DNA of 64,000 bases from an uncultured delta proteobacterium. GTDB taxonomy: Bacteria; Desulfobacterota; Deferrimicrobia; Deferrimicrobiales; Deferrimicrobiaceae. The position numbers were made by a program, and so were the translations under genes. Numbering within the stretch: the first letter of the stretch is position 1; every line of letters begins with the position of its first letter. Where the stretch lies: contig CAVYRM010000008.1 of NCBI GenBank assembly GCA_963770975.1, positions 79,858 to 143,857 on the forward strand, given 5' to 3'. Shown here in pieces: positions 38,585 to 64,000 of this stretch. The notes beneath the pieces are model-generated. The model was not told the origin of the DNA. It did no database searches and worked only from the letters and a program-made list of their open reading frames with translations.

Positions 38585-41590
<3,006 letters not shown>

Positions 41591-44114: not shown

Positions 44115-44143
44115 AGAGGGCGGGGAGAACCCCGCCCTCTTTC
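44115..44143 (+). terminator. Terminator-like hairpin after the c3 gene.
   Basis: AGAGGGCGGGG-AGAA-CCCCGCCCTCT followed by TT. The T-tail is short. Confidence 0.45.
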
Positions 44144-44229
44144 CGTCCGGTTCCGGCTCTTTTCCGTTTGACGACCGGTTCCTTATTTGGTACACAGTAT
44201 ACATCCCGGATAACTGAAGGTGACCCTGC

Positions 44230-45592
44230 ATGACTGACGAGAAACGTGCTCCATCCCCGATGGACCGGGTATGGAGTTTCTTCATCTCGGTAAGGCTCGC
44301 CATCATCACGCTGATCGTCCTCGCCGTCGCCTCGATCTTCGGCACGATCGTCGAACAGAACCAGCCTCCCGAGAAGTACCACCAGATCTACGAGGACTGG
44401 GCGTTCACCCTGATGGACAAGATCAACCTGTTCGACATGTACCACTCCTGGTGGTTCCTCCTCCTCCTCGTCCTGTTCACCGTGAACCTCTCCTGCTGCA
44501 CGCTCGACCGCTTCCCGAAGGTGCTGAAGGTGGTGCGCAACCCCCGGACGAAGCTGGACGAGAGCCTCGAGAAGACGTTGTCGCTTTCGGACCGGTGGAA
44601 GAAGAAGGGCGCCCTTTCGGAATGGGCGGGGAAGTACGCGGAGGCGCTCTCCGCTTCCTTCGCGAAACCGAAGGTCACCGAGGAGGGAGGCGAGGTGCAC
44701 CTGTACGCGGAAACCGGGGTGGCGTCCCGGTTCGGCGTCTACGTGACGCACCTCTCCATCATCATCATCTTCATCGGAGCGATCATCGGCAACGTCGTCG
44801 GTTTCAAGGGATACGTGAACATCCCGGAAGGGGAGGCGGTCTCCCAGGTCCCCGATCCGGGGAGGGACCCGCGTGCAGGAGCTCGGGTTCACCGTCCGCT
44901 GCAACGCCTTCACCCTCGAGACGTACCCGAGCGGCCAGCCCAAGGCGTACAAGTCCGACCTGAGCGTCATCGAGGGGGGACGGGAGATGGCCCGGAAGAC
45001 GATCGTGGTCAACGACCCGCTCCAGTACAGGGGGATCTGGTTCTACCAGTCGAGCTACGGGCAGGCGGGGGGCGCGACGGCGCAGGTCGTCGTCTCCCGC
45101 AAGGACGGGACCCCCGCGGGCAAGCTCTCCCTCGCGGCCAACGAGGCGGTTCCGATCGACGGATACGGGGTCATCCGCGGCGTGAACTACGAGGACAACT
45201 TCCAGGGACACGGGCCCGCGCTCCAGGTCGTCGTGGAGAAGCCGGGGAAGCCCGCCTCCTCCTTCTGGATCTTCCGGGGGCGCCCCGACATCGACCGGGA
45301 CCGGGGCGACTCGCTTGTGTTCTCCTTCGAAGGCCTGAGTTCGAAGATGTTCACCGGGCTCCAGGTGGCGAAGGACCCGGGGGTGAACATCGTCTGGCTC
45401 GGGTGCGCGCTGATGGTGATCGGGATCATCATCGCGTTCTTCCTCTCGCACCAGCGCGTGTGGATCCGGCTGGCCCAGGGTACGGACGGACGCGTCGAGG
45501 TCGTCCTGGCCGCCTCCGCGAGCAGGAACCGGCTTGCCTTCGAGAATAAATTTGAGAGAATACAGACCGGAATCAAGGCGGTGGGTCAATGA
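44230..45592 (+). CDS. resB: System II cytochrome c biogenesis protein ResB/Ccs1, with one frame change at the C-run near 44850.
   Basis: MDRVWSFFISVRLAIITLIVLAVASIFGTIVEQN...WWFLLLLVLFTVNLSCCTLDRF...GFKGYVNIPEG, then (in the 44873 frame) ELGFTVRCNAFTLETYPSG...IVVNDPLQYRGIWFYQSSYG...LQVAKDPGVNIVWLGCALMVIG. Confidence 0.85.
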
Positions 45593-46428
45593 GCAACGTC
45601 ATCCTGTTCAACCTCACCACGGTGCTCTTCGGCGTGGCGTCCGCCCTTTACCTCGGCGCCCTCTACGCGAAGAACGACAGGATCTCCGTGTTCGGCACCT
45701 GGGTCTGCATCCTCGCCGCGGTCGTCTCCACCGCGGCGCTCGGGGTTCGCTGGTACGAATCGTACCAGATGGGGATCGGGCGAATACCCGTCACGAACCT
45801 CTACGAGTCGCTCGTCTTCTTCGCATGGTCGGTGAACCTGTTCTACCTGGTCGTGGAGTGGAAGTACCGAACCGCACCTTCGGCGCCTTCGTGATGCCGA
45901 TCGCCTTCGTCACGATGGTGTTCGCCGTCTATAACGACAGCAGCATCCAGCCGCTGGTGCCCGCGCTGCAGTCGTACTGGCTCCACGCCCACGTCATCAC
46001 CTGCTTCGTCGGGTACGCGGCGTTCGCCGTCTCCGCCGGGGTGGCGCTCATGTACCTGCTCAAGGCCCGCCAGGAGGAGGCGAAGATCTCGGAAGGGCGT
46101 CGTCGGCCTGCTCCCCGCGTGCAAGATGCTCGACGACCTGGTCTACCGGTCGATCATCTGGGGGTTCCCGTTCCTGACCGCCGGGATCATCACCGGCGCG
46201 GCGTGGGCGAACTACGCCTGGGGAACGTACTGGTCGTGGGACCCGAAGGAGACCTGGTCCCTCATCGTGTGGCTCGTCTACGCGGCGTTCCTCCACGCGC
46301 GGATCACGCGCGGGTGGCACGGCAAGCGCGCCGCCATCCTCTCGATCGTCGGGTTCCTGGCCACGATCATGTGCTACCTCGGCGTCAACCTGGTGCTCTC
46401 CGGCCTCCATTCCTACGGAGGGGGTTGA
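45589..46428 (+). CDS. ccsA: System II cytochrome c biogenesis protein CcsA/ResC (heme exporter/lyase), with two frame changes.
   Basis: [13 protein letters not shown]..., then [10 protein letters not shown]...[23 protein letters not shown], then the WWD-type motif [28 protein letters not shown]. Its start overlaps the resB stop (ATGA). Confidence 0.85.
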
Positions 46429-46486
46429 TGCGTCCTTTTCGAATCGCTTTCTGAATCCACATCTGCAGCAGCAGGGAGGAGTCGGC

Positions 46487-47789: not shown

Positions 47790-47801
47790 GAGGCGGTGGC
47801 G

Positions 47802-48813: not shown

Positions 48814-48828
48814 GCGAAAGGTGCCGCG

Positions 48829-49295: not shown

Positions 49296-49331
49296 CGATG
49301 ACCGAGGCGGCGGGTCGACTCGAGGGGAGCG

Positions 49332-50468
49332 ATGCGCGGGAGGGGGGCGTTCGGAAAGATCGCGGCGGTCCTCTTCGTTTTCGCCCTGGGGCTCTACGCC
49401 TCCCCGAAGGCGGCGGCCGCGTTCAAGAACGTCCAGACCGGGGCGGAAGCCCCGGCGTTCAAGCTGGCGGATCTCTCCGGGAACGAGGTCTCCCTCGAAA
49501 CGTTCAAGGGGGACAACGCCGTGATCCTCGTCTTCTGGGCCACCTGGAGCGGGCGCTCCCTCGACGAGCTCCGGGACGTCCAGAAACTCGTCGCCGAGTA
49601 CGGGCCGAAGGGGCTGAAGGCCGTCGCCGTCAACGTGGAACACGAACACACGACCGAGCGACGACCTGCGGATGATCCGGAGAAGGCCGCCTCCCTCAAC
49701 CTCACCTTCCCCGTGCTGCTCGACAAGGGGCTGGACACCTTCCGCAACTACGGCGTGGTGGCGGTTCCCTCCACCGGAACGCTCGGACGCGGGAACGTCC
49801 TCCGCGACGCCTTCAACGGGTACCCCTCTTTCGTCTTCCTCGAGCTGAAGTCGCAGGTCGAGACGCTGCTCGGCATGAAGCCGGTGGAAACCGCCGTCGC
49901 CGCGAAGGCCGACACCTCCCACAAGCCGACCCGCCCGGCGCTGCTCAACTACAACCTGGGCCGGCGGCTCTACGCGTTCGGCATGGCCGACAAGGCCGAA
50001 CCGAAGCTGCGGGCCGCGGCCGCGGCCGACCCGGCGTGGGCGGCGCCCAACGTCCTGCTGGGCGAGGTGCTCCTCTCCCGGTCGAAGAAGGATCCGGGCG
50101 AAGATCGCGGAGGCGAAGAAGGCGTTCGAGTCCGCCGTCGCGTCGGAGGAGGGGAACGTGGTGGCGCGCACCGGATTGGCCCGCGTATACTGGTCCTCCG
50201 GCCAGGCGGCCGACGCGGAGCGGGAGATCGACGCGGCGCTCAAGAGGAACGGGACGTACACGCCGGCCCTCCTGCTCAAGGCCGGCATCCTCGCCCGGAA
50301 GGGGGACGCTCCCCGGTGCGGAAAAGATGATCCGCGAGGCGATCGAGCTGAACGCGCGCGATCCGTCAGACCTACGCGCTCGCCGGCCGGGCCTACGAGG
50401 AGGGGAAGGATCTCGCGAAGGCCGCGGCGATGTACCGCAAGGCGTGGGAACTGAACGGGGAGCACTGA
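49332..50468 (+). CDS. Secreted thioredoxin-fold plus TPR fusion in which both active-site Cys are replaced by Ser (WSGRS). About three frame changes lie in the TPR part.
   Basis: The signal peptide is AAVLFVFALGLYASPKAAAA. The redoxin core APAFKLADLSGNEVSLETFKGDNAVILVFWATWSGRSLDEL...LTFPVLLDKG...VVAVPST reads SGRS where CxxC is expected. The TPR part is LLNYNLGRRLYAFGMADKAE..., VARTGLARVYWSSGQAADAE and ALAGRAYEEGKDLAKAAAMYRKA. Confidence 0.6.
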
Positions 50469-50610
50469 TGCAGCGGGTGCGCCGCCTTCATCGTGACGGC
50501 GGTTTCGGCGGCGTCGATCCTGGCGTACGGCATCTTCCGCGAGGAGATCGGCGAGGTGATGTTCAACGCCGCGATGCTTTGACTGTCGTGCATCGGGGTC
50601 GGGTGACTCC

Positions 50611-51476
50611 TTGGGATACCTGAAGCGCCGGATCTTCCAGGGGATGGGGGCCGTCCTCCCGAACTCCTACGTCCAGGGGTTCCTGACCGCGTCCCTCTAC
50701 CAGGGATCGCTCAAAAGCGTCTGCTCCCCGCTGCTCAACTGCTACGCCTGCCCGTCCGCCCTCTTCTCCTGCCCCATCGGCACGCTCCAGCACTTCATGG
50801 TGACCGGGAACGTCCCGTATTACGGCCTGGGGACCCTCTCCGTGGTCGGCGCCACGGTGGGGCGGATGACGTGCGGGACGCTGTGCCCCTTCGGTTTCCT
50901 GCAGGATCTCCTCTACAAGTTCCGGGCGTGGAAAGTCTCCATCCCCGTCTGGACGCGGTATTTCCGCTACGCGGTCCTGGTCGGGCTCGTCTTCCTCATC
51001 CCGTACCTCACCCACGAGAACTGGTTCTCGAAGCTGTGCCCGATGGGGACGCTGATCGGCGGCCTGCCGTGGGTCACCCTGAACGCCGAACGTCCGCTCG
51101 ATGATCCGCGCGCTGTTCTGGGTCAAGATCGCGATCCTGCTCTTCTTCGTCACCACCTCCACGATGGTGAAGCGCCCGTTCTGCCGCGCCGTCTGCCCGC
51201 TGGGGGCGATCTTCTCCCTGTTCAACAAGTCGAGCTTCCTGCAGCTCGCGTGGAACCCCGACACCTGCACGAAGTGCGGGAAGTGCCAGAAGATCTGCCC
51301 GGTGGACATCCGCCCCGACCGGAACCCGACGAACCCGGACTGCCTGCGGTGCCTCGACTGCACCCGGTGCCCGAGCCTCAAGCTCACCACGGTGTTCCAC
51401 CGGCGCCGTTCGACGCTCCCCGGTATCCCGCCGGTCGAGGCCACCGGGGCGGGCTACCGCAAGATCCGCCGCCTGA
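50611..51476 (+). CDS. NapH/MauN/NosR-type membrane polyferredoxin (4Fe-4S binding). At least two frame changes; the 3' end is uncertain.
   Basis: It has the CX3CP-type motifs LNCYACPSALFSCPIGTLQ, CGTLCPFGFLQD and FCRAVCPLGAIF, then the ferredoxin motifs CTKCGKCQKICP and CLRCLDCTRCP. A TGA at 51474-51476 in a third frame overlaps ATG 51476 (TGATG). That suggests a separate downstream kinase gene. Confidence 0.55.
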
Positions 51477-53003
51477 TGCTGCGGGCGGGTCCGGGCTCTC
51501 CGTTGCGGTTTCTGCCGAGCTCCCTCTTCTACAGGATGTCGCTCACCATCGGCGTCGTGCTGGTGGTCGTCTTCGGGATCTCTTCCTACCTCACCTACCG
51601 GATCCAGTCGGAACAGGCGTTGACCGCCACCAAGACCCAGGCGATCCTGCTCACCCGCGGCTTGAAGAACACGATCCGGATCGGCATGGAGTCCGGCCAC
51701 ACGGAGTCGCTCGCGTCGATCTTCCAGACGGTCGGCGCCTTGCCCGGCGTGGAGAAGCTGCGGGTCTTCAACGAGGAGGGGAAGATCCGGTACTCCGCGA
51801 AACCGGCCGAGGTCGGGCCACCTGACCGACGAGCTCGACTACACGGTGTACCGCAGCCCCGAGCGGAGCACGCCGTTCCAGAGCGAGGTGACCGGCCACC
51901 GGTCCTTCTGCATGGTGGAGCCGATCGAGAACGACGCGAAGTGCCGACGGTGCCACCCGAAGGAGATCGAGGTGCTCGGCGTGCTCGACGTCTGCCTCTC
52001 GATGGAGGACACGGAGAAGAGCATCGCGTTCAACCGCCTCCTCCTCCTCTCCTCCACCGGTCTCGCGCTGATCCTGACGTCGGGAATCATCAGCGTCCTC
52101 CTCAAGCGGTTCGTCTCCCGGCCGGTGGAACGTCTCGTGAAGACGATGGAGTCGGTGGAGGCCGGGAAGCTCGACGGCCGGGTGGACATCCGCAGCGGGG
52201 ACGAGCTGGGGCGCCTCGGGAACAGCTTCAACGAGATGATCCGGAAGCTTGTCGGATGCGCAGGACGAGCTCGAGAAGTTCCACCACAGGCAACTGGCGC
52301 GCGCCGACCGGCTGGCGTCCCTCGGCGAGATGGCGGCGGGGATCGCCCACGAGATCAAGAACCCGCTGGCCGGGATCTACGGCGCCGCCCAGGTCCTCGT
52401 CGACGAATTCCCGGAGGGGGACCCGAAGCGGGAGATCGTCGGGGAGATGATGGTCCTCCTGAAGCGCCTGGACAACACGATCAGGGACCTGCTGAACTTC
52501 GCGCGCTACACGGAGCCGCAATTCACGAAGGGGAACCTGAACGACGTGATCGACAAGGTCCTGTTCCTCGTCCAGCAGATCCCCGAGGGGAAGCGGGCGC
52601 GGATCGTCCGGGAGTTCGACCCCGGGATGCCGGAGATCGAGATGGACCAGGAGCAGGTGAAGCAGGTCTTCCTGAACCTGGCGCTCAACGCCCTCCAGGC
52701 GCGCCCCGACGGGGTGACGCTCACCATCCGCACGCGGGGAGACGTCCCCGCCGAGGGGGGCGACGGTGCGGCACCGCGCCCGCTACGTGATGGCGTCGGT
52801 GTCCGACGACGGCCCGGGGATCCCGCCGGACAAGCTGGGGAAGATCTTCCAGCCGTTCTTCACGACGAAGGAGAACGGCACGGGCCTCGGGCTCTCGATG
52901 ACCCGGAAGATCCTCGACCTGCACGAGGGAAGGATCACGGCGGAGAGCGAGGCCGGGAGGCGGCGCGACCTTCACCGTGTTCCTGCCGAAGGTGAAGCCG
53001 TGA
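51476..53003 (+). CDS. Sensor histidine kinase whose periplasmic domain carries a CxxCH heme-c motif (2TM, HAMP, HisKA, HATPase). About four frame changes.
   Basis: TM1 is [19 protein letters not shown]. The periplasmic segment ends in [31 protein letters not shown]2 is [22 protein letters not shown]. The HAMP segment is [41 protein letters not shown]. The H-box is [15 protein letters not shown], the N-box [10 protein letters not shown], and the G-boxes DDGPGI and GTGLGLS. The stop is at 53001-53003. Confidence 0.7.
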
Positions 53004-53075
53004 GATCCGGCTACGCCGATACCCGTTTACAATTTCCGGCGGACAGCTCCTTCCGGATCGGATATAATCGGGGCC

Positions 53076-54541
53076 ATGGCGCGATCGAGGATCCTCGTGG
53101 TGGACGACGAGCGGATGATCCGCTGGTCGATCCAGCAGACCCTTTCGAAGGACGGCCACGTCCGTGGCCGCCGTGGAGACGGGCGAGGAGGCGGTGGCGC
53201 AGGCGACCGACGAGATGCCCGACCTCGTCTTCCTCGACATCACCCTCCCGGGGATCGACGGCATCGAGGTGCTCCGGCGCCTCAAGGCCCTGGACCCGTC
53301 CGTCGCCGTCGTGATGGTCACCGCCACCGACGACCTGAAGACCGCCGTCGAGGCGATGCGCCTGGGCGCCTACGACTACGTCAGCAAGCCGTTCGACCTC
53401 GACCGCCTGCGGGTGATCGCCCAGAACGCGCTCGACCGTCACGAGTTGCGCCAGGAGGTCGAGTTCCACCGGAAGGAGTCGGTGAAGCGGTACGGGTTCC
53501 ACCGGATCGTCGGTTCGAGCCGGAAACTCGCGGAAGTGGTCGAGGTGGCGAGGAAGGTGGCGAAATCGGACGCCGCGACCGTGCTGCTCCAGGGGGAGAG
53601 CGGCGTCGGGGAAGGACCTGTTCGCCCAGGCGATCCATTACGAGAGCGCCCGCGCCACGCGGCCCGTTCATCCCGATCAACTGCACCGCCCTGCCCGAGG
53701 AACTGCTCGAATCCGAGCTGATGGGGCACGAGAAAGGCGCCTTCACGGACGCGAAGTTCGCGAAGAAGGGGCTCTTCGAGGTGGCCGACGGCGGGACGAT
53801 CTTCCTCGACGAGATCGGCGACATGAAGCCCGGCCTCCAGGCGAAGCTCCTGCGCTTCATCGAGAACAAGGTCTTCCGCCGGGTCGGCGGGCACCGGGAC
53901 ATCTCCGTCGACGTCCGCATCGTGGCGGCGACGAACCGGAACCTCGACGAGCTCGTCCGCACGGGGCGAGTTCCGGGAAGACCTCTTCTTCCGGCTGAAC
54001 GTGATCCCGATCCGCATCCCGCCCCTGCGGGAGCGCCGCGAGGACATCCTGCCCCTGGCGGAGCATTTCTTCTCCGAGTTTTCCAACGACATCCGGAGGC
54101 CCGGGAGCGGTTTCTCGGACCTCGCGAAGCGCCAGATGACGGCGTACGACTGGCCGGGGAATGTCCGCGAGATGCGGAATATCATCGAGCGCGCGCTGAT
54201 CCTCGGCGCGGCGGGCATCGTGGAGCGCCTCGACCTCCCCGTGCCGACCGGGGCGCCGGAGCGTCCCGGGCGTCCCTGGCCGGACCGGCTCCTCCCCGAA
54301 CCGGCCCGGGTGGGGAGCCGATTCGCATCCCCGGGGATCGGAGCCCTCATCCGGCGGCGCCGGCCGGAGCGGACACGGATTCCGCCTCCCGCCCTCCGGG
54401 ATCGTGCTCGAGGACCTCGAACGGGACCTCCTGCTCCAGGCGCTGGAGACGACCCAGGGGAACCAGACGAAAGCGGCGGAGATGCTCGGCCTCACCCGGG
54501 ACGCCCTCCGGTACCGGATGAAGAAATTCGGCTTCCTGTAA
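53076..54541 (+). CDS. Sigma-54-dependent response regulator (NtrC family), with at least five frame changes.
   Basis: It has the receiver [12 protein letters not shown]...[14 protein letters not shown]...YDYVSKPFD, the AAA+ core [11 protein letters not shown]...[15 protein letters not shown]...[12 protein letters not shown]...[11 protein letters not shown]...[19 protein letters not shown], and the [29 protein letters not shown] (stop 54539-54541). Confidence 0.8.
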
Positions 54542-54599
54542 TCGCTCGTCTGATCGCTCGTCCCCGGACAAGTGGGGGATATCCCCCTCCACCGTATAA

Positions 54600-54660
54600 G
54601 GTTCACACCGAATTCTCTATATAACTGATCGTATTCACACCGGAATTCGATCGGGGTGTA
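54600..54660 (+). promoter_or_regulatory. Candidate enhancer-binding sites upstream of the sigma-54 promoter.
   Basis: TTCACACCGAATTC (54600-54613) and TTCACACCGGAATTC (54634-54648) form a direct repeat separated by an AT-rich stretch. An inverted GGGGTGTA follows at about 54653-54660. Confidence 0.35.
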
Positions 54661-54671
54661 TCCCGGTGCGT

Positions 54672-54687
54672 TGGCATCAAACATGCT
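54672..54687 (+). promoter_or_regulatory. Near-consensus sigma-54 (-24/-12) promoter for the FN3/NHL-cytochrome operon.
   Basis: TGGCAT-CAAAC-ATGCT has exact GG-N10-GC spacing. It lies 20 nt upstream of a strong ribosome-binding site (AGGAGGGGG) and ATG 54707, immediately downstream of a sigma-54 activator gene. Confidence 0.6.
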
Positions 54688-54706
54688 GGATAAGAGGAGG
54701 GGGCAG

Positions 54707-56365
54707 ATGGGAACCGTCATGTGCGTTAAATCACGCAGAACAGGAGGCGCGAACGTGAACCAGAGGGGGATTTCGAAAGTGAAAAACGTGTCGAAGTATG
54801 CTACGGCGTGCGTGCTGGCATTGGCGATGTTCGCGGCTGCGGGAAGCGGCGGCGGCCGCTCTTGCCGGCGCCCAACTGGATGCCGGGTTCTCCGATCATG
54901 GCGGGGACCCAGGTCATCCTGCTCTGGCTGCCCATCCCGAACGCCGTGAAATACAACATCTACCTCAACGGGAAGAAGATCGGTGAATCCCCCGCGGTGC
55001 AGTACATGATGGCCTCTCCGACCGAGTCCGGGAGAATATTCGATCCTGATCGCGGCTGTGGATGCCGCCGGGGCGGAGGGTGCGAAGTCGGCCCCCGGCG
55101 TCATCCGGATCGTGACGGTGAATCCCCCCGCCTCGGTCTACGGCCGGGTAATGGAGAACAAGGTCCAACTCAAGTGGGACCAGGCCAAAGGCGCCGTAAT
55201 CTACAACGTGTACCGGGCCGACAAGGAGACGGGGGAGGCCAAGCTCCTCTCCTCGGTCCAGAGCGACGCCTATACCGATTCGGCGGTTCAGCAGGGGAAG
55301 GCGTACTTCTACTCCGTCACCGCGAAAGACCTCGCGGGGAAAGAAAGCGCCAAATCGAAACCATACCGCATCGAGGTCCCCCTGCCGCAGTCCGCCGCAG
55401 TGAAGGAGGCCAAGGTCGAGATCAAGGTCGTCGCGACGAACCCCGTGGCGGAGAGCCTCTTCCTCGGATCGAAAAAGATCGAGATGTTCGGCGACATGAA
55501 GCCCGGCCCGGACGGCCACATCTATGTGCTCGACGCCGGCCAGAGGCAGGTCCTGAAACTCGAACCCAAATCCCTCGAAGTCGTCTCGGTCTTCCCCTCC
55601 ACGCCGGAGGAGAAGGAGAAGATGAGACGCCCCCTCTCCATCGGATTTACCTCCGACGGGCGGGCCTTCATCGTGGACCCATTCGCCCGGAAGGTTTTCG
55701 TTTTCGACGCCGCCGGGAAGATGGTGTCCGAATTCCCGGTCCCCGCGCCGACCGACAAGGAGGTCGTCCAGAACGTCCTGCCGCACCTCCGGGACCAGGG
55801 GATTTTCCCGTCCGGGATCCATGTGGACGAGAAGGAGAAGACGATCTGGATCACCGACCCCCGGTTCAACACGATCTACCGGTTCGACCTCGACGGGAAA
55901 TTCCTCGGGAACCTGGGGCACGGAGGGGACCCCGAACAGTACTTCGCCGGGCCGGGCGAAATCCTTGCGGACCGCAACGGCACCGACCTCTACGTCACGG
56001 AGCCTCTGGCCCACATCGTCCTGGTGATCGACCGGAATAACGGCAAGATCAAGCGGATGATCGGGAGGAAGGCGTCGGGCTTCATCGGGGGCTTCATCGG
56101 TCAATCGGGGATTACCTACGACCCGGAAGGAAACGTGGTGATCTCCGACGCCGGGGTCCATTCGATCCAGGTCTTCGACGGAAAGACGGGGGCGTACCTC
56201 TACCACTTCGGGGACGAGTCCGGAAAAGTGGATCCGAAGATGACGGAGCGGGCGCTCCTGGGAATCGAGATGCCGAACCGGGCGTTCGTCCGCGGGAACA
56301 TGCTCTACATCTTCCGGGCCGACAAGATGAACGTCGTCTCCCGGGAAATCGTGAAGAAGAAGTAG
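54707..56365 (+). CDS. Secreted protein with two fibronectin-III-like domains and a C-terminal NHL-repeat beta-propeller. About three frame changes lie in the first 350 nt.
   Basis: The signal-like N-terminus is YATACVLALAMFAAAGS. The FN3-like segments are ILLWLPIPNAVKYNIYLNGKKIGES and VQLKWDQAKGAVIYNVYRADKETGE...YFYSVTAKDLAGKES. The NHL-like repeats are DGHIYVLDAGQRQVLKL, SDGRAFIVDPFARKVFVFD, KTIWITDPRFNTIYRFD, GTDLYVTEPLAHIVLVID and EGNVVISDAGVHSIQVFD. Confidence 0.7.
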
Positions 56366-56477
56366 AAGACACATGATACGGAAAGGAGGGATGGCGAGAA
56401 GTTGGAGCGTTTCACCGGTACCGTATGATGATCCGTCTGGCCGATCAATTCGCAGGTCCATTCACAAGGAGGAAAGG

Positions 56478-58903
56478 ATGAGAAACCGTTACTTGCTCCT
56501 CGCAGCCCTTATCGGGGTCTTCGCGCTCGCCGCGGGCCCGCCTTCGCGGGGGTCCAAGGCACAGCCCACCAGACGTACGGTCGGGTCGCAGGGCGTCTGT
56601 TCCGCCTGCCACATCCCGCACGGCGGCCAGGGGGGCACAGGGACCCGACTCTGGCCGATCGCCGCGACGACCACGGCTACATCACCCACCGTCCTCGTCG
56701 GCACCGTGTCCACCCTCTGCGCATCGTGCCACCTCGCCGGCAGCGCCTACAACACTTCGATGGGCTCTGCGTTCTCCCCGCAACGCGCTTACCATCAAGA
56801 CGGCCACGGGGGCAAGATGACGGTCGCCAACATTACCAGTGGCGGCCTGGGATCGAGCAGCATGGCCACCTCGGGGCTGCCGTACATCGCGAACACCACG
56901 CTGGAGTGCACCAGCTGCCATAACGTGCACGACGACACGAACCGTCCGTTCCTCCGTGCGGAGATGGACGCCCTCTGCTCCTACTGCCACAGCAACCGGA
57001 TGTTCAAGGCGTCGGTAGAGAACTCCGGAAACGGCGCCACGAAGGGCGCCTGGGGCATCACGTACGTCGGCGGTGCGAACCCCGGTTCCCACCCCGTGGG
57101 GACCGACATCACCGGCAACGTCTCCGGCGGGCCCTCCCCCATCACGCTGGCGGGGAACTTCATCCTCCCGAAGACGAGCGCGTCGGGGACATGGTCCCTC
57201 GGCGGCCACCTGTCGGACAACAACGGCACCGGCAACTCCCTCAACGGCGTGACGTGCAACACCTGCCACGCGGTTCACGGGATCGAAGTGGATGGCGTCG
57301 CCGGCGGAAGCGTCCCGGTCACCAATTTCCTTGTGGTTGCGCAAAGCACGGGGACCAACGAAGGGGTCACCGGGCACTCGATCGCCAGCGGCGACGGCAG
57401 CGCGGGGAACGACCTCTGCGAGGCGTGCCACACCGGACCCGCTCCCGCAGGATACGGCGGATCCCGGAGAGTAAACCCCGGAGACAACGTCTCCACCCAC
57501 CCGGTGGACGACTACGCGTCCCAGAACGAACTGGTGGGGGATTTCAGAGCCGCCACCGGGACGTTGAACTGGCCCGCTTCCTCCACGGCGTCCGGAACGG
57601 GGAACGCCGCCATCTGCGAGTCGTGCCACACCCCGCACCCGCGGGCCAACATCGGCCGCGCCACCATCAAATTCGCTTCGGGGACGACGATCACCCCGTA
57701 CATCCTCCGCAACACGGCGGCACTCATCTGCAGCGACTGCCACAGCCCCAGCGGGGCTACGTTCGGGACGCACCACCCGGTCGGGACCGGCGGGGGCGGG
57801 ACGTCATGGGCGTCGGCCAAGTCGGGCGCCGCCAGCTACTTGCCCGGGATCACCACCGAGCTGTTGTGCAGCACCTGCCACGGCGGCGGGGGCGCGGGCG
57901 GGGCCCATAACTGGACGGGCCGCTCCTGGGTCGGCATGGTTCCCGGTTGGAAACCTGTGAACAACGCCCGGGTGGCGGGCACCGGGTACCGGTATGCCGC
58001 CTCCCCGAACCCCGTAACGACGCAGGACATCTCCTCCACCTGCATCGACTGCCACCTCGACCTCGACGGGACGACGACGAACACGTCTCCGACGAAGCAT
58101 AACGGGACGGCTACCGGGACGCGATCGACCAAGCACAGTACACGAACCTCGGCACGGGAAGCCACTTCATCGGCCCGCTCGATAACGTCAGTTGGTTCAC
58201 CAACCGGGCGATCCCGACGTCCACCAACCGCGGGTCGACCACGAACTTCAATGCAGCCACCGACAACTGGACGTCGGCCATTTTCGGAACAGGGAATGCG
58301 AACGGCGGCATCTCACGGTTCGGCGGGACCGCCTCCGCTCCGATCCTGGTGTGCGAGTCGTGCCACAACCTGGTGCCGTCCAGGAACGTGGGGCCGCATA
58401 TGCTCCTGGCCGGGTTCTATGAAGGGCAATCGACCCAATCCGGCACCCAATACGATACGTTATGCGAGGGGTGCCACGGCGTTCCGACCGGAACGCATCA
58501 GCAGAGCGCGGATCTTGTCGGCCGCACGAATGCGTTATTGGACACCTCGGCAGGATCTACCACCCGCACCTGGATCAGAACAAGCGCTCCCGCGGGCGTT
58601 CCTGTCGGCGGGGTTGCGGGCACATCCACCTGGTTAACCGGTGTCGCCGGAACCGGACAGCTGTCGTGCGACTCGTGCCACCAGGTCCACGACGCGAACA
58701 CGCTGGGCGCCTCCCTGATCATCGAGGCCCCGGCCGGCAACGTCACGGGCGGCACGCCGGCGACCGTCGTCGTCAGCGGGACACCGACGTACTACGGCGG
58801 GACCAACCCGATCAATTACCGCCTGAAGGGGCAGGCTCCGACCAAAGGCACGATGCCGGACGTCTCGATGTTCTGCGATCAATGCCACACCTACCGGCAG
58901 TAG
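56478..58903 (+). CDS. Large (about 808 aa) secreted Thr/Gly/Ser-rich c-type cytochrome with 14 widely spaced CxxCH motifs. One frame change near 58105.
   Basis: The ribosome-binding site is AAGGAGGA. The signal peptide is MRNRYLLLAALIGVFALAAG. The motifs are CSACH, CASCH, CTSCH, CSYCH, CNTCH, CEACH, CESCH, CSDCH, CSTCH, CIDCH, CESCH, CEGCH, CDSCH and CDQCH. There are about 18 additional His, including recurrent (S/T)HPV. After KHNG the sense continues in the frame of the 58349 ORF as GYRDAIDQAQYTNLG. Confidence 0.75.
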
Positions 58904-58921
58904 CCGAATAGGCGTATCATC

Positions 58922-58958
58922 AACGGCAGGGGGAGGGTATCGCCCTCCCCCTGCCGTT
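58922..58958 (+). terminator. Perfect 16-bp GC-rich hairpin after the large cytochrome gene (a terminator or processing/attenuation structure; no clear T-tail).
   Basis: AACGGCAGGGGGAGGG-TATCG-CCCTCCCCCTGCCGTT. Confidence 0.45.
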
Positions 58959-58986
58959 ATCACACATTCAATCCCAGGGGGGGGGT

Positions 58987-59535
58987 ATGATGAGAAAAGG
59001 CATCCTGCTATACCTGTTGATCGTGTTCGGGGTGGTCCTGTTGACGGTTCCCGCGTCTTTCGCCGCCGAAGAGAAGGCCGCGCCGGCCGAGGCGCCGAAG
59101 ATCCCGGGTGTGGGCGACATGGCGCCGGCGTTCTCCCTCCCCTCGCTGGACGGCAAGACCGTCACCACGAAGGATATCGCGGGAGGGAAGCCGGTTTCCG
59201 TCGTCATCTTCATGAGTACGGCGTGCTCGGCCTGCCAGACGGAGATCGCCGCCGTGGACCAGATCCTCAGCAAATACGGCGATAAGGTCGACATGTTCCT
59301 CATCGCCGTCGACGCCCGCGGGGCGGAGACGGTGAAACCGTTCTCGGATACGTTCAAGTACAAGGCCACGTACCTCCTCGACACGAAGTTCACGGTGCCC
59401 CGGATGTTCGGGTTCTCCGCCACTCCGTCGGTGATCGTGCTCGACAAGGCGGGGAAGATCCTGCTGAAGAAGGCCGGATACCAGGTCGGCGACGCGGAGG
59501 AGATCCAGGAGGCCGCGATCAAGTTCACGAAGTAG
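58987..59535 (+). CDS. Secreted TlpA/ResA-like thioredoxin (CSAC).
   Basis: It is intact. The signal peptide is KGILLYLLIVFGVVLLTVPASFA. The core is APAFSLPSLDGKTV...VVIFMSTACSACQTE...FLIAVDARG...SATPSVIVLDKAG. Confidence 0.75.
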   Translation: MMRKGILLYLLIVFGVVLLTVPASFAAEEKAAPAEAPKIPGVGDMAPAFSLPSLDGKTVTTKDIAGGKPVSVVIFMSTACSACQTEIAAVDQILSKYGDKVDMFLIAVDARGAETVKPFSDTFKYKATYLLDTKFTVPRMFGFSATPSVIVLDKAGKILLKKAGYQVGDAEEIQEAAIKFTK

Positions 59536-59557
59536 GCAGGAGCGTTCCGTCGGATCA

Positions 59558-59597
59558 GGGGGAAGGTCGTGGGGAACCCGGCCTTCCCCCGATTTTT
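59558..59597 (+). terminator. Rho-independent terminator-like hairpin.
   Basis: GGGGGAAGG...CCTTCCCCC followed by GATTTTT. Confidence 0.5.
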
Positions 59598-59612
59598 CCC
59601 GGGAGGGGAGAC

Positions 59613-61286
59613 ATGAGAAGACACATCGCCGCATCGCTGGCTGCGTTGTTCGTCTGGACGGCGGCGGCAGGCCCCGCCGATACGGCCTTCGGGGCGACCT
59701 CTGCGGCGAAAAAAGACGGGGGGAAGGCGACCGTTGCCCCCGACGTGGTGGCGGTGATCGACGGCGTCCCGCTGAAGGTTTCGAGCCTCGGCCTGGTGCG
59801 GCTCCTGGGGTTTTCCGGCAAACACGGCGAGCCCGTCGCGAAGGCGGACCTGCTGGACAAGCTCGTGGAGGTGGAGCTCGTCGTCCGTTACGCGGAAGGG
59901 AAAGACCTCCCCACCCCCGGGAAGGGGAAGGAACTCCTCGCCCTGTTCCGCGAGACCACCCTCGGGATGGAGTACGCCGAGGAGATGAAGCGGACCGTCC
60001 GGTTCGACGCATCGGAAATCCGGGACCGGCTCCCGCTGAAGTGGAAAGTGGCGAGCTTCGAGGTCGTCCTGTACGACACGCTCGACGAGGCGAAGGCCGA
60101 CGCGGCTTCGGTGAAAACCGTTGAGGAGTTCGAGGCCCTGAAGGCGAAATATCCGGACCGTGCCAAGGCGTTCGACAACCTCTACCCGAAATCCGGCTTC
60201 TTCAACGAGTACGACGACATCGCCATCTTTAACCGGGAATCCGCCGGAGTATACGGGGTGGGGGAGACCGGGATCGGGCCAGGGATCCTCCGGATCCGGG
60301 AGATCCGGGAGCCCGCGGAGGCCGAAAAGGAGGGACTCCTCCGGAAAGCAACCGCGACGTTGGCGGAAGTCCAGTTCTCAAGGGAGGCGGACCGTTTACG
60401 GCAGGATACGCCGCGCCGTATCGACAGGAAGGCCCTCCTGCGATACGTGGAGTCCGTCCGCTCCGGAGGACCGGTGGACATCCCGGTGGCGACCATCGGG
60501 GAGTGGACGATCACCAGCGGATTGGTCCGCAATTTTGTGGTAAACGAGCCGGTGAATTTCATGAGGGCGTCGAAAATCGAGGAGGTTGCGGGCGCCTACG
60601 TCGATATCCTGAACCGCCTGGCGGACACTCTCGCTTTTGCGGCCGAGGCCAGAAAGCAAGGTCACGACGACATCCGGTCCGACCAGTACGGGAATTCGTA
60701 CCGCAGCTTCCGGAAGAAGCTTCTGTACACGGCAGGGCTGGAAGACGGCGTCGGTCCCGTCGCCGCGTCGGACAACGAAGTCCGGGAATATTACGAGGCG
60801 AATCGGAAGACGAGGTTCACCCCGGCAGAACGCGTGGAGGCGGCCCACATCTTCTCGAAAGAAAAGAAGAAAGTGGATAAGGCGCTCAAGCGGATCAAGG
60901 CGGGGGAGAGCTTCGAGGAAGTGGCGAAAGAGGTGTCCGAGGATTCCCGGTCCGCCTCCAGGGGCGGAGCGATCGGGTGGATTCTGAAGGACGGGAAAGT
61001 GCTCCCGGAGTTCGAGGAGCAGGCATTCAAACTGAAGGGGAAGCCGGGGGCGGTTTCCCCCGTATTCAAGACCACAAATGGATACCATGTCCTGAAGGTA
61101 ATCAGTTACCACCCGGAGAAGGAGATCCCTTTCGAAAAGGCGGAGCCGATAGTGCGGAGAGACCTGGAGAATGCCCGGTTCGAGGCCGGGAAGAAGGCGT
61201 TCCTTGAAGGGCTGCGGAAGAATGCGACCGTCACGACATACCCGGAGAACGTGCCGGACGCCCCGGCGAAAGCGAGCCACCGATGA
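59613..61286 (+). CDS. Periplasmic SurA/PrsA-like chaperone with a PpiC-type (parvulin) PPIase domain.
   Basis: It is intact at 557 aa. The signal peptide is RRHIAASLAALFVWTAAAGPADTAFG. The parvulin core is RVEAAHIFSKEKK...GESFEEVAKEVSEDSRSASRGGAIGWI...VSPVFKTTNGYHVLKV. Confidence 0.75.
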   Translation: MRRHIAASLAALFVWTAAAGPADTAFGATSAAKKDGGKATVAPDVVAVIDGVPLKVSSLGLVRLLGFSGKHGEPVAKADLLDKLVEVELVVRYAEGKDLPTPGKGKELLALFRETTLGMEYAEEMKRTVRFDASEIRDRLPLKWKVASFEVVLYDTLDEAKADAASVKTVEEFEALKAKYPDRAKAFDNLYPKSGFFNEYDDIAIFNRESAGVYGVGETGIGPGILRIREIREPAEAEKEGLLRKATATLAEVQFSREADRLRQDTPRRIDRKALLRYVESVRSGGPVDIPVATIGEWTITSGLVRNFVVNEPVNFMRASKIEEVAGAYVDILNRLADTLAFAAEARKQGHDDIRSDQYGNSYRSFRKKLLYTAGLEDGVGPVAASDNEVREYYEANRKTRFTPAERVEAAHIFSKEKKKVDKALKRIKAGESFEEVAKEVSEDSRSASRGGAIGWILKDGKVLPEFEEQAFKLKGKPGAVSPVFKTTNGYHVLKVISYHPEKEIPFEKAEPIVRRDLENARFEAGKKAFLEGLRKNATVTTYPENVPDAPAKASHR

Positions 61287-61834
61287 GCGGAAAGGAAAGA
61301 TCGATGCCCGGGTTCGTCGTTCGGATCCCGTTCGTCCTGGCGTTCCTGATCCTCGCCGCCGGCGCGTCGTTCGCCGACCCGGCGGGGAAAGGGGTAAAGG
61401 CCGGACAGGCCGCACCCTCCTTCTCCGGCGTTTCGACCGCGGGAACCCCGGTGGATTCGAAAGATCTCCTGTCGAAGAACCGGGCGGTCCTCGTCGCTTT
61501 CTGGGGGATCCGATGCGCCGCGTGCATCGATGAAGTCCCGGCGCTTCGAAAGATCCAGGGCGAGTTTCCGGAAGGCACCCTCCAGGTGGTGGGAGTGAAC
61601 ACGGACGGCGTGGACGCCCCCACGCTTTCGGCCATGATGGAGGAAGAGAAGATCGCCATGAATTACATCGTCCTGACCGACCCCGGGTTCAAGGTCGTCG
61701 ATTCGTTCGGGATGACCGCGGCTCCTCTCACGATTCTCATCGACCGGGAAGGGAAGGTTCGTTATGTCCACCAGGATTACAAACCGGGGGATGAAATCGA
61801 ATTGCGCGGAAAGATCCTCGAAGCGGTCAAATAA
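61283..61834 (+). CDS. Secreted TlpA-like thioredoxin (CAAC).
   Basis: It is intact. The core is AAPSFSGVSTAGTPV...VLVAFWGIRCAACIDEVP...VVGVNTDG...TAAPLTILIDREG. The start overlaps the upstream stop. Confidence 0.75.
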   Translation: MSGKERSMPGFVVRIPFVLAFLILAAGASFADPAGKGVKAGQAAPSFSGVSTAGTPVDSKDLLSKNRAVLVAFWGIRCAACIDEVPALRKIQGEFPEGTLQVVGVNTDGVDAPTLSAMMEEEKIAMNYIVLTDPGFKVVDSFGMTAAPLTILIDREGKVRYVHQDYKPGDEIELRGKILEAVK

Positions 61835-61871
61835 TCCCTTGTCCTTCGCGAGGAACTCCGATTTCCATGGT

Positions 61872-63030
61872 TTGTCGCGATGCCGGGTCTTGCTGTTCCG
61901 GGGGATCGTATCCGTTTCCCTGCTCATTGCATCCCTCATGCTGGGGAAAATCCTTCAAGCCTCGGCGGGAGTCCCTGCGTATATCGGCTCCGAAAAATGC
62001 GCCTCCTGCCACCAGATCCAGTACAAGGGGTGGGTCAAGACGTTCCACAGCACCGTGGTGGGGGATGCGAAGAAGGACCCCTCGGTGATCATGGCCGACA
62101 TGTCCGACCCCGATCTGCCGTTCAAGAAGGAGGATATCCACTACACGATCGGCGGCCACTGGGACCAGCGGTACCTGACGAAGATCGGCGACGACTATTA
62201 CATCCTTCCCCGTCTCTGGTCCGTGCAGAGCAGCAAGTGGCGCCCCTACAGCACCTACGGCTGGCAGAAGCGCCCCTACTCGAAATATTGCATCGGCTGC
62301 CACTCCGTCGGCTTCGACCCGAAGACGCGCGGGGTCGTGGAGCACTCCGTCGGGTGCGAGTCGTGCCACGGCGCCGGAGTCGCCCACTCGGCGAAACCGA
62401 GCAGGGAGAACATCGTCAACCCGAAGCGGCTTTCCGAGGACAGGTCGGAGGAGATCTGCGCCTCCTGCCACGTGCGCGGGAAGGACCTTTCCGGGGAATA
62501 CTTCTTCCAGCTCGGGTGGAAGCCCGGGGACGACCTCGCGAAGTACTATGTTCCGCTCGACAAGAACGAGGGGGAGAGCAACGACGACGCCATCCACCGC
62601 CTCTGGGACCAAGTGGAGATCCGACCGGGAGTCGCAGTCCCGCTCCCGGTGCGAGGTGTGCGGCATCCACCAGAACGTGAAACCCCAGGGGGAGAAGATC
62701 AGCGTCGACGCCATCTGCATGAGCTGCCACGAGTACGACGAGAAGCAGCTTTCCCTGCACACCCGCCACAAGACGCTTGCGAGCGTCGGCTGCACGGATT
62801 GCCACGAGGAGAAAGAACCGGACCTGAATGAAAACCGCGAGAACAACGTCCATTCCTACGGCTACTTCCTGATCCACCCGCAAGGGTGCTGGGACGACAA
62901 GATCCACAACCGGTGCGGGAAATGCCACGCTGACAAGCCGAAGAAATGGGCTTATGATACGGTGTTGAGGTTGGAAAAAACCGGTCGTGATCGACCACTG
63001 ATATCTTCACTCTCCTCGGGGGCAGGGTGA
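61872..63030 (+). CDS. Multiheme c-type cytochrome of the cytochrome c554-like family (7 CxxCH plus one CxxCGxH). One frame change near 62600; both ends are uncertain.
   Basis: The signal-like N-terminus is RVLLFRGIVSVSLLIASLMLGKILQASA. It has CASCH followed by QYKGWVKTFH and IGGHWDQRYL, then CIGCH, CESCH, CASCH, CEVCGIH, CMSCH, CTDCH and CGKCH. An A-run near 62975 could place the true stop at about 63000. Confidence 0.6.
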
Positions 63031-63591
63031 TGAGAACCGCTTTCAGGATGGCACCGGTACTTCTGTGCATGGTGTTCGCGTTGGGGCTTGGAGCGTCGCC
63101 CGCCCTGGCCGCGGGCGACACCGCGATGCGCTTGAAGATCGGCGAAAAAGCTCCGGATTTTCGCCTCAAGGACGTGATGACCGGGAAGACGGTCACCCTC
63201 TCCGAGTTCGCGGGGAAAAAGGTCGTCATGCTCGAGTTCTGGGCGACCTGGTGCGACATCTGCAAGCGGGAGATGCCCAACCTCGTCAAGTTGCACACAC
63301 GCGTGGGGGCCCAAGGGGTTCGAGCTCCTCTCCATCGTGCTCCCGTCGGGGAACATCGCCGACGTGAAGAAGATCATCACGGAAAAGAAGCTGACCTACC
63401 CCGCGCTGCTCGACGCCGACCTGTCGGTGGCGACGAAGCTCTACGGGCTCGCCGGCCCCATTCCGCTCAAGGTCGTGATCGACCACAAGGGGATCATTCG
63501 CTACTCCCACGTGGGGGATTACCCGCCGGGCGAGGACGAGTTGCCGTTCGTCCTCGAGGACCTCGTGAAGGAGATGGGGAAGGGAAAATGA
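63027..63591 (+). CDS. Secreted TlpA-like thioredoxin (CDIC), with one frame change near 63305.
   Basis: The signal peptide is MAPVLLCMVFALGLGASPALA. The core is APDFRLKDVMTGKTV...VVMLEFWATWCDICKREMP, then (in the 63337 frame) FELLSIVLPSGN...YPALLDADL...IPLKVVIDHKG. Confidence 0.7.
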
Positions 63592-64000
63592 CGCGGCGTT
63601 TCCTGCCCCTGCTTGTCGTCCTGCTCGTCTCGATCGCCTACCCGGCCCTCGTCCGCGGAACGGTCGGTCAAGGTGGGGCAGACGGTCCCGGAATTCTCCC
63701 TCCCCGGGCTGGACGGGGAGACCAGTCTCCTTCCACAAGGACATCCGCGGGAAGGCCCCGCTCACGGTGCTCTTCTTCATGACCACGGCGTGTTCCGCCT
63801 GCTACGAGGAGACTCCGGGAGATCCACGAGTTCGCCTCGAAGCACCCGGGCAAGATCGAAACCTGGGCCGTCGCGGTCGACCTTCGCGGGGCGCAGACGG
63901 TGGGTCCCTACCAGCAGTCGAACCGGTTCCGCGTGAAATACCTGATCGACCCGAAATTCTCCCTTCCCCGGGTCTTCGGATTCCACTACACCCCGTCCCT
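63588..64000 (+). CDS. Secreted TlpA-like thioredoxin (CSAC), 3' partial, with about two frame changes.
   Basis: The signal peptide is RRFLPLLVVLLVSIAYPALV. Then VGQTVPEFSLPGLDGE..., PLTVLFFMTTACSACYEE and WAVAVDLRGAQTV...YLIDPKFSLPRVFGFHYTPS. It resembles the 58987-59535 protein. Confidence 0.6.

Follow-up and report, generated by a model that had tools for sequence, protein, structure and literature searches.

The 64,000-nt stretch of DNA analysed here (the window), which derives from an uncultured delta proteobacterium of the family Deferrimicrobiaceae (contig CAVYRM010000008.1), contains at positions 56478–58903 of its forward strand a gene for a 14-heme cytochrome of 808 amino acids (aa). 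The N-terminal part of this protein is homologous to OmcE, a cytochrome that forms extracellular nanowires, and the remainder is best described as a series of diverged copies of the same module. It is on balance probable that the product is a soluble cytochrome of the OmcE superfamily, exported by Sec and with bis-His ligation of all its hemes, that would serve as an insulated wire for extracellular electron transfer.

Neither the program-made list of open reading frames (ORFs) nor a reading of the frames showed a continuous ORF over these positions in the window sequence. The span comprises 2,426 nt, a number not divisible by three, and the list contained two overlapping ORFs in different frames (56373–58637 and 58349–58903). 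The original prediction, made from the DNA letters, had described an 808-aa cytochrome here. It was right as to start (an ATG at 56478, preceded by AAGGAGG), stop (58901–58903) and length, but no single ORF encodes the protein and three indel corrections are needed to read it. On three-frame translation, frame 0 contained 10 CxxCH motifs and frame 2 the other four, with the switch between a frame-2 stop codon (58099–58101) and the point at which frame 0 degenerates. A further 13 codons near the N-terminus could be read in frame 2 only. They include a G-T-x-H-(D/Q) motif that, in an alignment of homologs, is nearly invariant right behind the signal peptide; at this site frame 0 of the window reads SKAQPTRRT, while frame 2 reads GPAFAGVQGTAHQT, nearly identical to homolog P0002. 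The earlier reading had silently stitched one frame break; it had also misread the N-terminus and thereby missed the conserved His31. The gene and its three breaks are as follows:

56478..58903, + strand: 14-heme cytochrome gene, 808 aa, reads through after three single-base corrections; full-length intact homologs at 65–71% identity
56536..56540, + strand: indel 1, the window lacks one base in a GGGCCCG run, frame 0 to frame 2 (tblastn, frame reading, and an extra base behind 56536/56539 in the relatives' contigs X1 and X6)
56576..56579, + strand: indel 2, one surplus base in the window, back to frame 0 (frame reading, relatives' contigs)
58116..58119, + strand: indel 3, one base missing between GGGA and C, the last 262 codons moved from frame 0 to frame 2 (contig X1 has an extra A behind 58118)

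The segment between indels 1 and 2 encodes the conserved AFA followed by GVQGTAH(31)QT, the corrected junction at indel 3 reads ...KHNGTATGNAIDQAQY..., and the corrected ORF is 2,427 nt long. The breaks were examined by aligning to the gene short-read (Illumina) contigs of ∼93–99%-identical relatives from a soil metagenome and a soil metatranscriptome. It was precisely at the three break points that these contigs departed from the window, the sole further indel within the cytochrome gene being an in-frame one of 3 nt. Over positions 44000–63900, ∼50 single-base indels separated the window from the same relatives. Genes for a histidine kinase (spread over four frames), a sigma-54 response regulator, a beta-propeller protein, other cytochromes and the housekeeping gene purA were also split between frames. 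The frame breaks are very probably assembly errors, and the gene intact in nature, because the relatives are intact at the same three sites and because so many similar indels, including those in purA, occur in 20 kb. That the gene is instead a genuine pseudogene of this organism, inactivated by three frameshifts, is very unlikely. The window as given does lack an intact ORF and the indels are unevenly distributed, some neighbouring genes being free of them, but two of the three indels in the cytochrome gene cancel each other over less than 40 nt, the conserved motif can still be read almost perfectly from the out-of-frame DNA, and no stop codon or other decay was found in the corrected frame; in addition, indels of the same type affect many unrelated genes, and the relatives are intact and transcribed, as judged from the metatranscriptome contigs. 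The unevenness amounts to no indels in the 1.7-kb peptidyl-prolyl isomerase (PPIase) gene next to the cytochrome, of which an exact copy exists in an independent short-read assembly (a contig of ERR12037368), and to 5–7 in some stretches of 700 bp. The frame-split regions of the window include 40179–41552, 51101–54541, 5541–8650 and 46649–47607, and any ORF-based reading of it requires frame correction.

The 14 CxxCH motifs of the original prediction were all found in the corrected frame, against ∼0.04 expected from composition, and all 28 Cys residues of the protein lie in them. There are 33 His residues, 19 of them outside the motifs and not about 18 as counted before. Gly (14.6%), Thr (12.5%), Ala (10.3%), Ser (9.2%) and Asn (6.2%) together make up 53% of the residues. 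The heme density was correctly described as low: there are 56 aa to each heme in the mature protein, comparable to OmcE (∼51) and OmcS (∼68). The dense 26-heme cytochrome with which it had been compared does have 24.3 aa per heme, but at a distance of 49 kb it is hardly the neighbour it was taken for. The recurring motifs noticed earlier are present, CxxCHxxH five times (at residues 41, 144, 260, 380 and 731) and SHPV/THPV at 204 and 340, with HHPV at 432. No further hydrophobic segment was found in the corrected protein beyond the predicted signal peptide:

56478..56549, + strand: Sec signal peptide MRNRYLLLAALIGVFALAAGPAFA, predicted cleavage behind AFA, no lipobox Cys

Homology to OmcE was evident from searches of all PDB sequences. 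The best match of the single corrected protein was 7TFS (E = 3.3e-7), the OmcE nanowire of Geobacter sulfurreducens (PMC12954529). With a profile of the protein family, 7TFS was matched at E = 4.6e-21 (profile positions 13–169 with OmcE 6–231) and 9YUQ, the OmcE nanowire bundle of Desulfuromonas soudanensis (bioRxiv 10.1101/2025.10.22.684050), at E = 2e-20. OmcE was aligned end to end, from the signal peptide through T-K-H-D, CxxCHTPH...PLW and the second CxxCH to the C-terminal paired CxxCHKVHD...PFLR...CxxCH; the alignment takes in the N-terminal His of TxHD and all four heme motifs, and on the side of the 14-heme protein it covers the first module (M1) only. It identifies residues 1–175 as an OmcE-homologous module. 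The two proteins share a six-residue mature arm ending in T-x-H-D, the CxxCHxPH...(L)W motif followed by a second CxxCH, a His between hemes 2 and 3, the paired CxxCHxVH...PFLR...CxxCH, a mostly coil character with about 50–56 aa per heme, and a chain that ends just past the last heme motif. Their loci also resemble each other in having an adjoining beta-propeller gene and resB/ccsB nearby. Unlike OmcE, which has about 205 aa (the class ranges over 200–230) and four hemes, the present protein carries 14 hemes on 808 aa; its propeller partner has no lipobox, no large outer-membrane beta-barrel was found in the cluster, and part of the 14-heme family can do without the His that corresponds to the one in CHTPH.

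The rest of the chain could be related to M1 by comparing profiles of its segments with HHalign, which delimited three and a half modules:

56550..57017, + strand: module M1 (residues 25–180), OmcE-homologous tetraheme with H31, C41xxCH..H48, C81xxCH, H110, C144xxCH..H151 and C167xxCH (profile against PDB)
57060..57767, + strand: module M2 (residues 195–430), hemes 5–8 with H205, H244, H267, H341 and H387 (HHalign to M1)
57750..58492, + strand: module M3 (residues 425–672), hemes 9–12 with H432, H433, H477 and H563 (HHalign to M2)
58469..58900, + strand: half-module M4 (residues 665–808), hemes 13–14 with H674 and H738 (HHalign to the second half of M2)

M1 aligned to M2 with a score of 88 over 121 columns (maximum for shuffled profiles, 47), M2 to M3 with 87 over 159 columns (shuffle maximum 49), and the second half of M2 to M4 with 74 over 80 columns (shuffle maximum 37). 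In the shuffled controls the CxxCH columns were held fixed and all others permuted, and these aligned over 5–41 columns only. HHalign probabilities are inflated for heme-rich profiles (80–92% for the shuffles), and score and alignment length relative to the shuffles were used instead. Since the shuffles scored far below the real profiles, the resemblance between the modules is not confined to the heme motifs. These profile comparisons are best summarised by one canonical OmcE-like tetraheme module to which 2.5 diverged copies are joined; on a finer scale, seven di-heme units can be told apart, each built as His...CxxCH(xxH)...CxxCH.

An AlphaFold2 model of P0001, an intact homolog with 70% identity, had a mean predicted local distance difference test score (pLDDT) of 85 and a predicted template modelling score of 0.81. 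In the model, which contains no hemes, coil predominated and short helices lay at the heme motifs; a mostly-coil character has also been reported for OmcE. The ordered model and a longest pure run of Gly, Thr, Ser, Asn and Ala of 12 residues speak against the long low-complexity stretches that the original prediction had placed between the hemes.

Similarity to other known cytochromes was of lower order. OmcS (6EF8) was matched by the family profile with a whole-sequence E-value of 4.5e-11, made up of four weak stretches (individual E-values 0.0024–3), and MtrA, a periplasmic decaheme cytochrome, reached the same level (5.1e-11). The 14-heme protein shares with OmcS di-heme units of the form CxxCHxxH...CxxCH and a similar heme density, and its two C-terminal hemes align weakly with OmcS hemes 5–6, up to the chain end. 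Specific homology to OmcS is not supported by these matches, the similarity being patchy and at the level of MtrA. The kinship with filament-type cytochromes suggested in the original prediction was supported for OmcE, but not specifically for the 'OmcS class' with which it had compared the protein. Among the three filament families named there, OmcE gave a family-profile match in PDB, OmcS weak patches only, and OmcZ (7LQ5/8D9M) no chain among the PDB sequence matches up to E = 10 or E = 1. No chain of MtrC, MtrF or OmcA appeared in either PDB sequence search. Pfam PF22113 (MtrC/MtrF domain II/IV) did score 55.7 bits against a cut-off of 30 bits, in five short stretches scattered over the heme motifs. 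In contrast to MtrC, OmcA and MtrF, however, the protein lacks a lipobox as well as a four-domain architecture that includes beta-barrel domains, and it has few strands and is mostly coil. Paired_CXXCH_1 (PF09699; 80.8 bits, cut-off 20.6) matched in three stretches, one of them at residues 143–174, and TIGR01905 scored 58.2 bits (cut-off 25.2); both exceed their cut-offs and provide a domain label, not a functional family. The Pfam Cytochrome_C7 match covers the paired-CxxCH segment only (residues 139–177). The dodecaheme cytochrome GSU1996 is likewise a single-chain heme wire of fixed length made from a repeated module, but its c7 repeats are triheme units with about 26 aa per heme, whereas those of the 14-heme protein are tetraheme, OmcE-like and have about 56. 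No whole-family NCBIfam model exceeded its family cut-off, DmsE and GSU2203 remaining far below, and matches were at domain level only.

The corrected protein gave 115 matches in a word-indexed search, ∼100 of them full-length and uninterrupted (740–830 aa), the closest being 65–71% identical. An exhaustive profile search yielded 522 clusters (at 50% identity) at E ≤ 1e-30 and 4,327 at E ≤ 1e-10. All family sequences come from metagenomes or metagenome-assembled genomes (MAGs) and bear generic names such as 'cytochrome c3 family'. The full-length members present among the GTDB species representatives belong to MAGs of Deferrisomatales, 'Deltaproteobacteria', Gemmatimonadota, Poribacteria and Candidatus Deferrimicrobia. 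Pieces of near-identical genes (up to 99%) were present in soil metatranscriptome contigs. No description of the 14-heme family, or of its relation to OmcE, was found in the literature. The MBNT15 genome paper lists multiheme cytochromes without a link to OmcE; a preprint on OmcE mentions 5-heme variants as the only ones (bioRxiv 10.1101/2025.10.22.684050); a survey of module gain and loss describes variable heme numbers among OmcE relatives; and a survey of the cytochromes of Desulfuromonadia predicts long single-chain 'nanowire' multiheme cytochromes in general (PMC11492766).

Exactly 14 CxxCH motifs were present in 91 of the 102 aligned family members. In this alignment, non-motif His residues at positions 31, 110, 151, 205, 267, 341, 387, 433, 477, 563, 674 and 738 were conserved in at least 98% of the sequences. 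At position 244 Lys was the sole replacement, and at position 432 His was replaced by Cys in four sequences and by Asn in one, all hemes being kept in both cases. Lys and Cys can act as axial heme ligands, and for this reason positions 244 and 432 are probably real ligand sites. H48, in contrast, was replaced, likewise with all hemes kept, by residues unable to ligate heme and is dispensable in 12 members. Pairing of ligands with hemes by co-loss and compensation, for which few independent clades are available, showed this dispensability of H48 and gave a hint of a substitute near position 106. There are, in all, 14 conserved ligand positions for 14 hemes, and neither a conserved Met nor an atypical heme motif such as CxxCK was found in the family alignment. 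This balance of sites and hemes, together with the missing Met and atypical motifs, indicates an all bis-His low-spin electron carrier, not an enzyme. A multiheme redox enzyme of the octaheme, NrfA or HAO type, to which NrfA and octaheme nitrite reductase profiles matching at E∼1e-4 might point, is scarcely credible, given that these matches are partial and at motif level, that each of the 14 hemes has a conserved His (or Lys/Cys) partner and none is left open, and that the NCBIfam matches stay under the family cut-offs; no match to a periplasmic enzyme family of the kind that the original prediction had named as its refutation was found.

The OmcE-like N-terminal module is not confined to the 14-heme family. 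It heads three classes of protein in many phyla, namely tetrahemes of 212–230 aa (for example in Anaeromyxobacter oryzae), 11-heme proteins of 550–650 aa, and the 14-heme proteins. The 11-heme class, whose members begin with TxH(D/N)L...CxFCHTPH and have about 50–58 aa per heme, is very widespread, occurring in Planctomycetota, Acidobacteriota, Bacteroidota (including the cultured Carboxylicivirga marina), Woeseiaceae and betaproteobacteria (loci L019, L020, L024, L026–L028, L042, L043, L046, L047, L049, L058, L059 and L066); its relation to OmcE appears not to have been described before. The exhaustive search also returned giant proteins of 1,000–4,600 aa with up to 14 matched stretches, nearly always best to M1. 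Four of these (P0129, P0151, P0167 and P0220) were read and proved to be tandem arrays of a 160–180-aa unit that repeats the OmcE series of motifs; hemes numbered 24, 28, 34 and 48 among them, with 48 in P0129 (2047 aa). Covalent concatenation of the OmcE-like module therefore occurs in nature. The arrays, which resemble covalently joined OmcE filaments, were seen in Desulfobulbaceae/Desulfocapsaceae, Sulfuricella and other MAGs (related loci L015, L017, L018, L030, L035 and L037), and are possibly the 'long nanowire' class predicted in PMC11492766, of which a 27-heme cluster has been published. Like them, the 14-heme protein joins several OmcE-type tetraheme modules in one polypeptide. The arrays, however, consist of a well-conserved module of ∼160–180 aa (42 aa per heme) behind a distinct N-terminal cap, whereas in the 14-heme protein M1 alone is canonical, M2–M4 are longer and diverged, and the chain starts directly at an OmcE-type free arm.

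The gene lies in a cluster whose arrangement is conserved around relatives down to 25% identity. In order, it encodes a redoxin-TPR protein, a NapH-like Fe-S membrane protein, small cytochromes, a histidine kinase and a sigma-54-dependent response regulator; then a beta-propeller protein with FN3 and NHL domains (520–550 aa), the 14-heme cytochrome, a TlpA-type redoxin and a PpiC-type PPIase; and finally a second redoxin, a c554-like heptaheme cytochrome, and further redoxins and cytochromes. The corresponding features of the window are as follows:

44230..46454, + strand: resB and ccsB, System II cytochrome c maturation, 10 kb upstream of the cytochrome gene (Pfam ResB, Cytochrom_C_asm)
51101..54541, + strand: histidine kinase (HAMP-HisKA-HATPase) and sigma-54-dependent response regulator, both frame-broken; intact equivalents in loci L001, L002 and L085
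54672..54687, + strand: sigma-54-type -24/-12 element TGGCATCAAACATGCT between the regulator and propeller genes, upstream of the propeller-cytochrome operon
54756..56365, + strand: FN3 and NHL beta-propeller protein, start approximate, predicted to be secreted, no lipobox (Pfam NHL/SGL)
58987..59535, + strand: TlpA/AhpC-type redoxin, predicted periplasmic thiol reductase (Pfam, conserved position)
59613..61286, + strand: PpiC-type peptidyl-prolyl isomerase, SurA/PpiD-like periplasmic chaperone (Pfam, conserved position)
61283..61834, + strand: second TlpA-type redoxin (Pfam)
61850..63030, + strand: seven-heme c554-like cytochrome, start approximate, frame-broken near 62611; equivalents in L001, L002 and L085

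The propeller gene, which is frame-broken in the window at 54848, 54864 and 55033, stands immediately upstream of the cytochrome gene in L001–L003, L085 and L086, and its product carries a Sec signal peptide that contains no lipobox Cys. The sigma-54-type element occurs at the same place in L001 and L003 and is absent from L002 (two of three syntenic loci). Its count over the whole window is not above chance, so that it is position and conservation that suggest the cluster to be probably under sigma-54 control. The OmcE clusters of Desulfuromonadia adjoin resB/ccsB and hold beta-propeller lipoproteins and a large outer-membrane beta-barrel (bioRxiv 10.1101/2025.10.22.684050); in the window, resB/ccsB lie directly upstream of a run of cytochrome genes, which echoes the placement reported there. 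One relative, P0013, sits alone among housekeeping genes; beside it (L087, 6249–8900) lies a DnaB helicase gene with an intein that contains a LAGLIDADG endonuclease domain.

Several further observations concern the cluster and the rest of the window. A purine-rich element, GGAAAGGAGGGAT, lies at 56380–56392, directly behind the stop codon of the propeller gene and about 85 nt before the Shine-Dalgarno sequence of the cytochrome gene. It is conserved in L001 (about 7896–7910) and L002 (about 7898–7910) and similar in a third locus; it is followed in the window by an in-frame upstream ATG (56391), but by no start in the other loci. A hydrophobic micro-protein of 38–40 aa (…FAYGYFREELGEVMFNAAML) is encoded just upstream of the NapH-like Fe-S gene in L001 (948–1064), L002 (1323–1445) and L085 (2140–2256); a simple pattern search did not find it in the window, possibly owing to the frame errors. 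Polytopic membrane proteins accompany the cluster in L003 (1109–2476, minus strand), L001 (13645–15603), L002 (16802–18373), L085 (18828–20331) and the window (13034–14845). One of them, near L003, has PMT_2/TMTC hits and is GT-C-like, and the others combine a membrane-embedded N-terminal half with TPR repeats. OmcE has been reported to be glycosylated, and it is conceivable, though this is only a hint, that a periplasm-facing GT-C glycosyltransferase acts on the Thr/Ser/Asn-rich 14-heme cytochrome. S/T-P-S/T has been proposed as a hematite-binding motif. An S-P-T at residues 537–539 of the cytochrome (about 58086–58094 in the window) is conserved family-wide, with Pro538 in at least 90% of members, which may well be chance; three other copies of this type (at 69, 423 and 769) are not conserved. 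Two other cytochrome loci in the window are of different build. At 5457–8700 (plus strand) there are 42 CxxCH motifs in about 3.1 kb (26 + 16, hopping between frames) at a spacing that alternates strictly between about 69 and about 75 nt, corresponding to one or two very dense, highly periodic multiheme cytochromes with 24 aa per heme. At 15216–16539 (minus strand) a 12-heme cytochrome has its motifs in four groups of three and the c7-type look of GSU1996. A 587-aa ORF at 3697–5460 is mostly out-of-frame sequence around a SurA-like fragment. Pfam gave no match for the other unknown ORFs of the window, and Rfam found only tRNAs in it.

Taken as a wire for extracellular electron transfer, the 14-heme cytochrome would be exported by Sec as the apoprotein and loaded with heme by System II (resB/ccsB). 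The cluster-encoded TlpA-type redoxins would keep its 28 motif cysteines reduced, and the PpiC-type chaperone would aid the folding of this Gly/Pro/Thr-rich, mostly coil protein. The holoprotein may then carry a single continuous heme chain with OmcE-type packing, presumably roughly 11–12 nm long, a length that we extrapolate from the filament rises of OmcS and OmcE. Electrons would enter from the inner-membrane and periplasmic cytochromes of the cluster (with the NapH-like Fe-S protein, the small cytochromes and the c554-like heptahemes as candidate donors) and leave in the direction of acceptors that are insoluble or lie outside the cell, for example Fe(III)/Mn(IV) oxides or humics. Expression would be switched by the histidine kinase and the sigma-54 activator encoded next to it, and the propeller protein encoded upstream may be an obligate partner, possibly in assembly or anchoring. 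With OmcE-like features at both ends of the chain, the molecules might plausibly associate end to end to some extent, but this would not be required.

A number of points weigh against this reading. The 14-heme protein, like its whole family, is known from metagenome and MAG sequences. The RNA evidence consists of assembled contigs of relatives and may reflect carry-over of DNA. M2–M4 are linked to OmcE only through M1, the profile of M2 by itself giving a marginal match in PDB (9YUQ, E = 0.0095). When the P0001 model was used in a Foldseek search, OmcE ranked first but not significantly (E = 3.8, template modelling score 0.33); the paper describing OmcZ reports that fold searches fail likewise for OmcS and OmcE themselves. 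No large outer-membrane beta-barrel was found within ±8–9 kb of the gene in L001, L002, L003, L085 and L086, nor any barrel or porin among the tested ORFs of the window, which ends 5 kb downstream of the cytochrome gene. With type II secretion genes and a lipobox also missing from the five syntenic loci, an export route beyond the periplasm is not evident.

Whether the protein polymerises is a separate matter. It is possible, but we would not expect it, that the protein is a true nanowire subunit that associates head to tail in the manner of OmcE and OmcS, by a His-heme bond between subunits, to give micrometre filaments with 14 hemes (about 11–12 nm) per subunit. The ends of the chain speak for this. 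Ala occupies position -7 from His31 in 88% of the family and marks the signal-peptidase site, which fixes the mature N-terminal arm at six residues, [A/G][V/I]x[G/N][T/S]xH, the same as in both solved OmcE filament proteins. Behind the last heme motif 2–5 residues follow across the family (four in the present protein), as is the case for OmcE and OmcS. In the giant arrays the junction between modules, from the last CxxCH His to the next T-x-H His, measures exactly 10 residues in 28 of 28 cases, which equals the sum of the two free tails (4 + 6). The two ends of the chain thus correspond in appearance to the two halves of a junction between modules, an arrangement compatible with head-to-tail association, though no proof of it. 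The conserved propeller partner is a further point in common with OmcE loci. On the other side, the 14 conserved ligand positions can be drawn without a donation from a neighbouring molecule, and for this reason polymerisation is not required. Moreover, His48, which we take to be the equivalent of the inter-subunit donor His16 of OmcS, is the residue that 12 family members dispense with. A propeller lipoprotein and an outer-membrane barrel serve as working markers of nanowire-competent OmcE homologs (bioRxiv 10.1101/2025.10.22.684050); the propeller encoded here has no lipobox, and no large barrel was found in the five syntenic loci.

Alternatively, the protein could be a strictly periplasmic wire or electron store of fixed length, with a function like that of GSU1996, bridging quinol oxidation at the inner membrane to outer-membrane or soluble acceptors. 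We regard this, too, as a possibility short of an expectation. It would agree with an export signal limited to the Sec signal peptide, with a cluster that provides no lipobox, export machinery or porin, with conserved accessory genes that all encode periplasmic maturation factors (the TlpA redoxins and the SurA/PpiC chaperone), and with the fact that covalent arrays of this module, fixed in length, do exist. In its heme density and in a composition that is coil-rich, low in charge and rich in Thr, Ser and Asn, however, the protein resembles insulated extracellular wires and not dense periplasmic cytochromes; the closest characterised homologs (OmcE) are extracellular, and both termini show the same conservation as those of filament subunits. 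With a true filament and a strictly periplasmic protein each holding a minor share of the probability, the remainder falls to a surface-associated monomer or short oligomer.

To our knowledge, cytochrome nanowires are structurally known from only a handful of proteins. At the level of sequence, the 14-heme family forms a bridge from the OmcE filament subunit through a single-chain 14-heme protein to arrays with 24–48 hemes, and makes it testable whether such modules polymerise or are concatenated. The most far-reaching form of the proposal, a long-subunit nanowire in which 14-heme subunits, presumably of roughly 11–12 nm, polymerise head to tail through the OmcE-type N-terminal arm, is speculative and rather unlikely. 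If true, the 4-heme OmcE, the 11-heme and 14-heme proteins and the 24–48-heme arrays would form a continuous evolutionary series in which the same tetraheme module serves either as a non-covalent filament subunit or as part of a covalently concatenated wire, and nanowires would exist in abundant uncultured soil and wetland lineages (Deferrisomatales and relatives of Deferrimicrobia), assembled without a Geobacter-type outer-membrane barrel. Should the protein be only a fixed-length periplasmic wire, it would still be a useful model, of defined length, of OmcE-type heme packing. The self-contained conserved gene set, with its regulator, propeller partner, thiol reductases and chaperone, could guide heterologous production. 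The hosts of the family are uncultured bacteria of soil, wetland and groundwater, represented by MAGs, that are thought to reduce iron.

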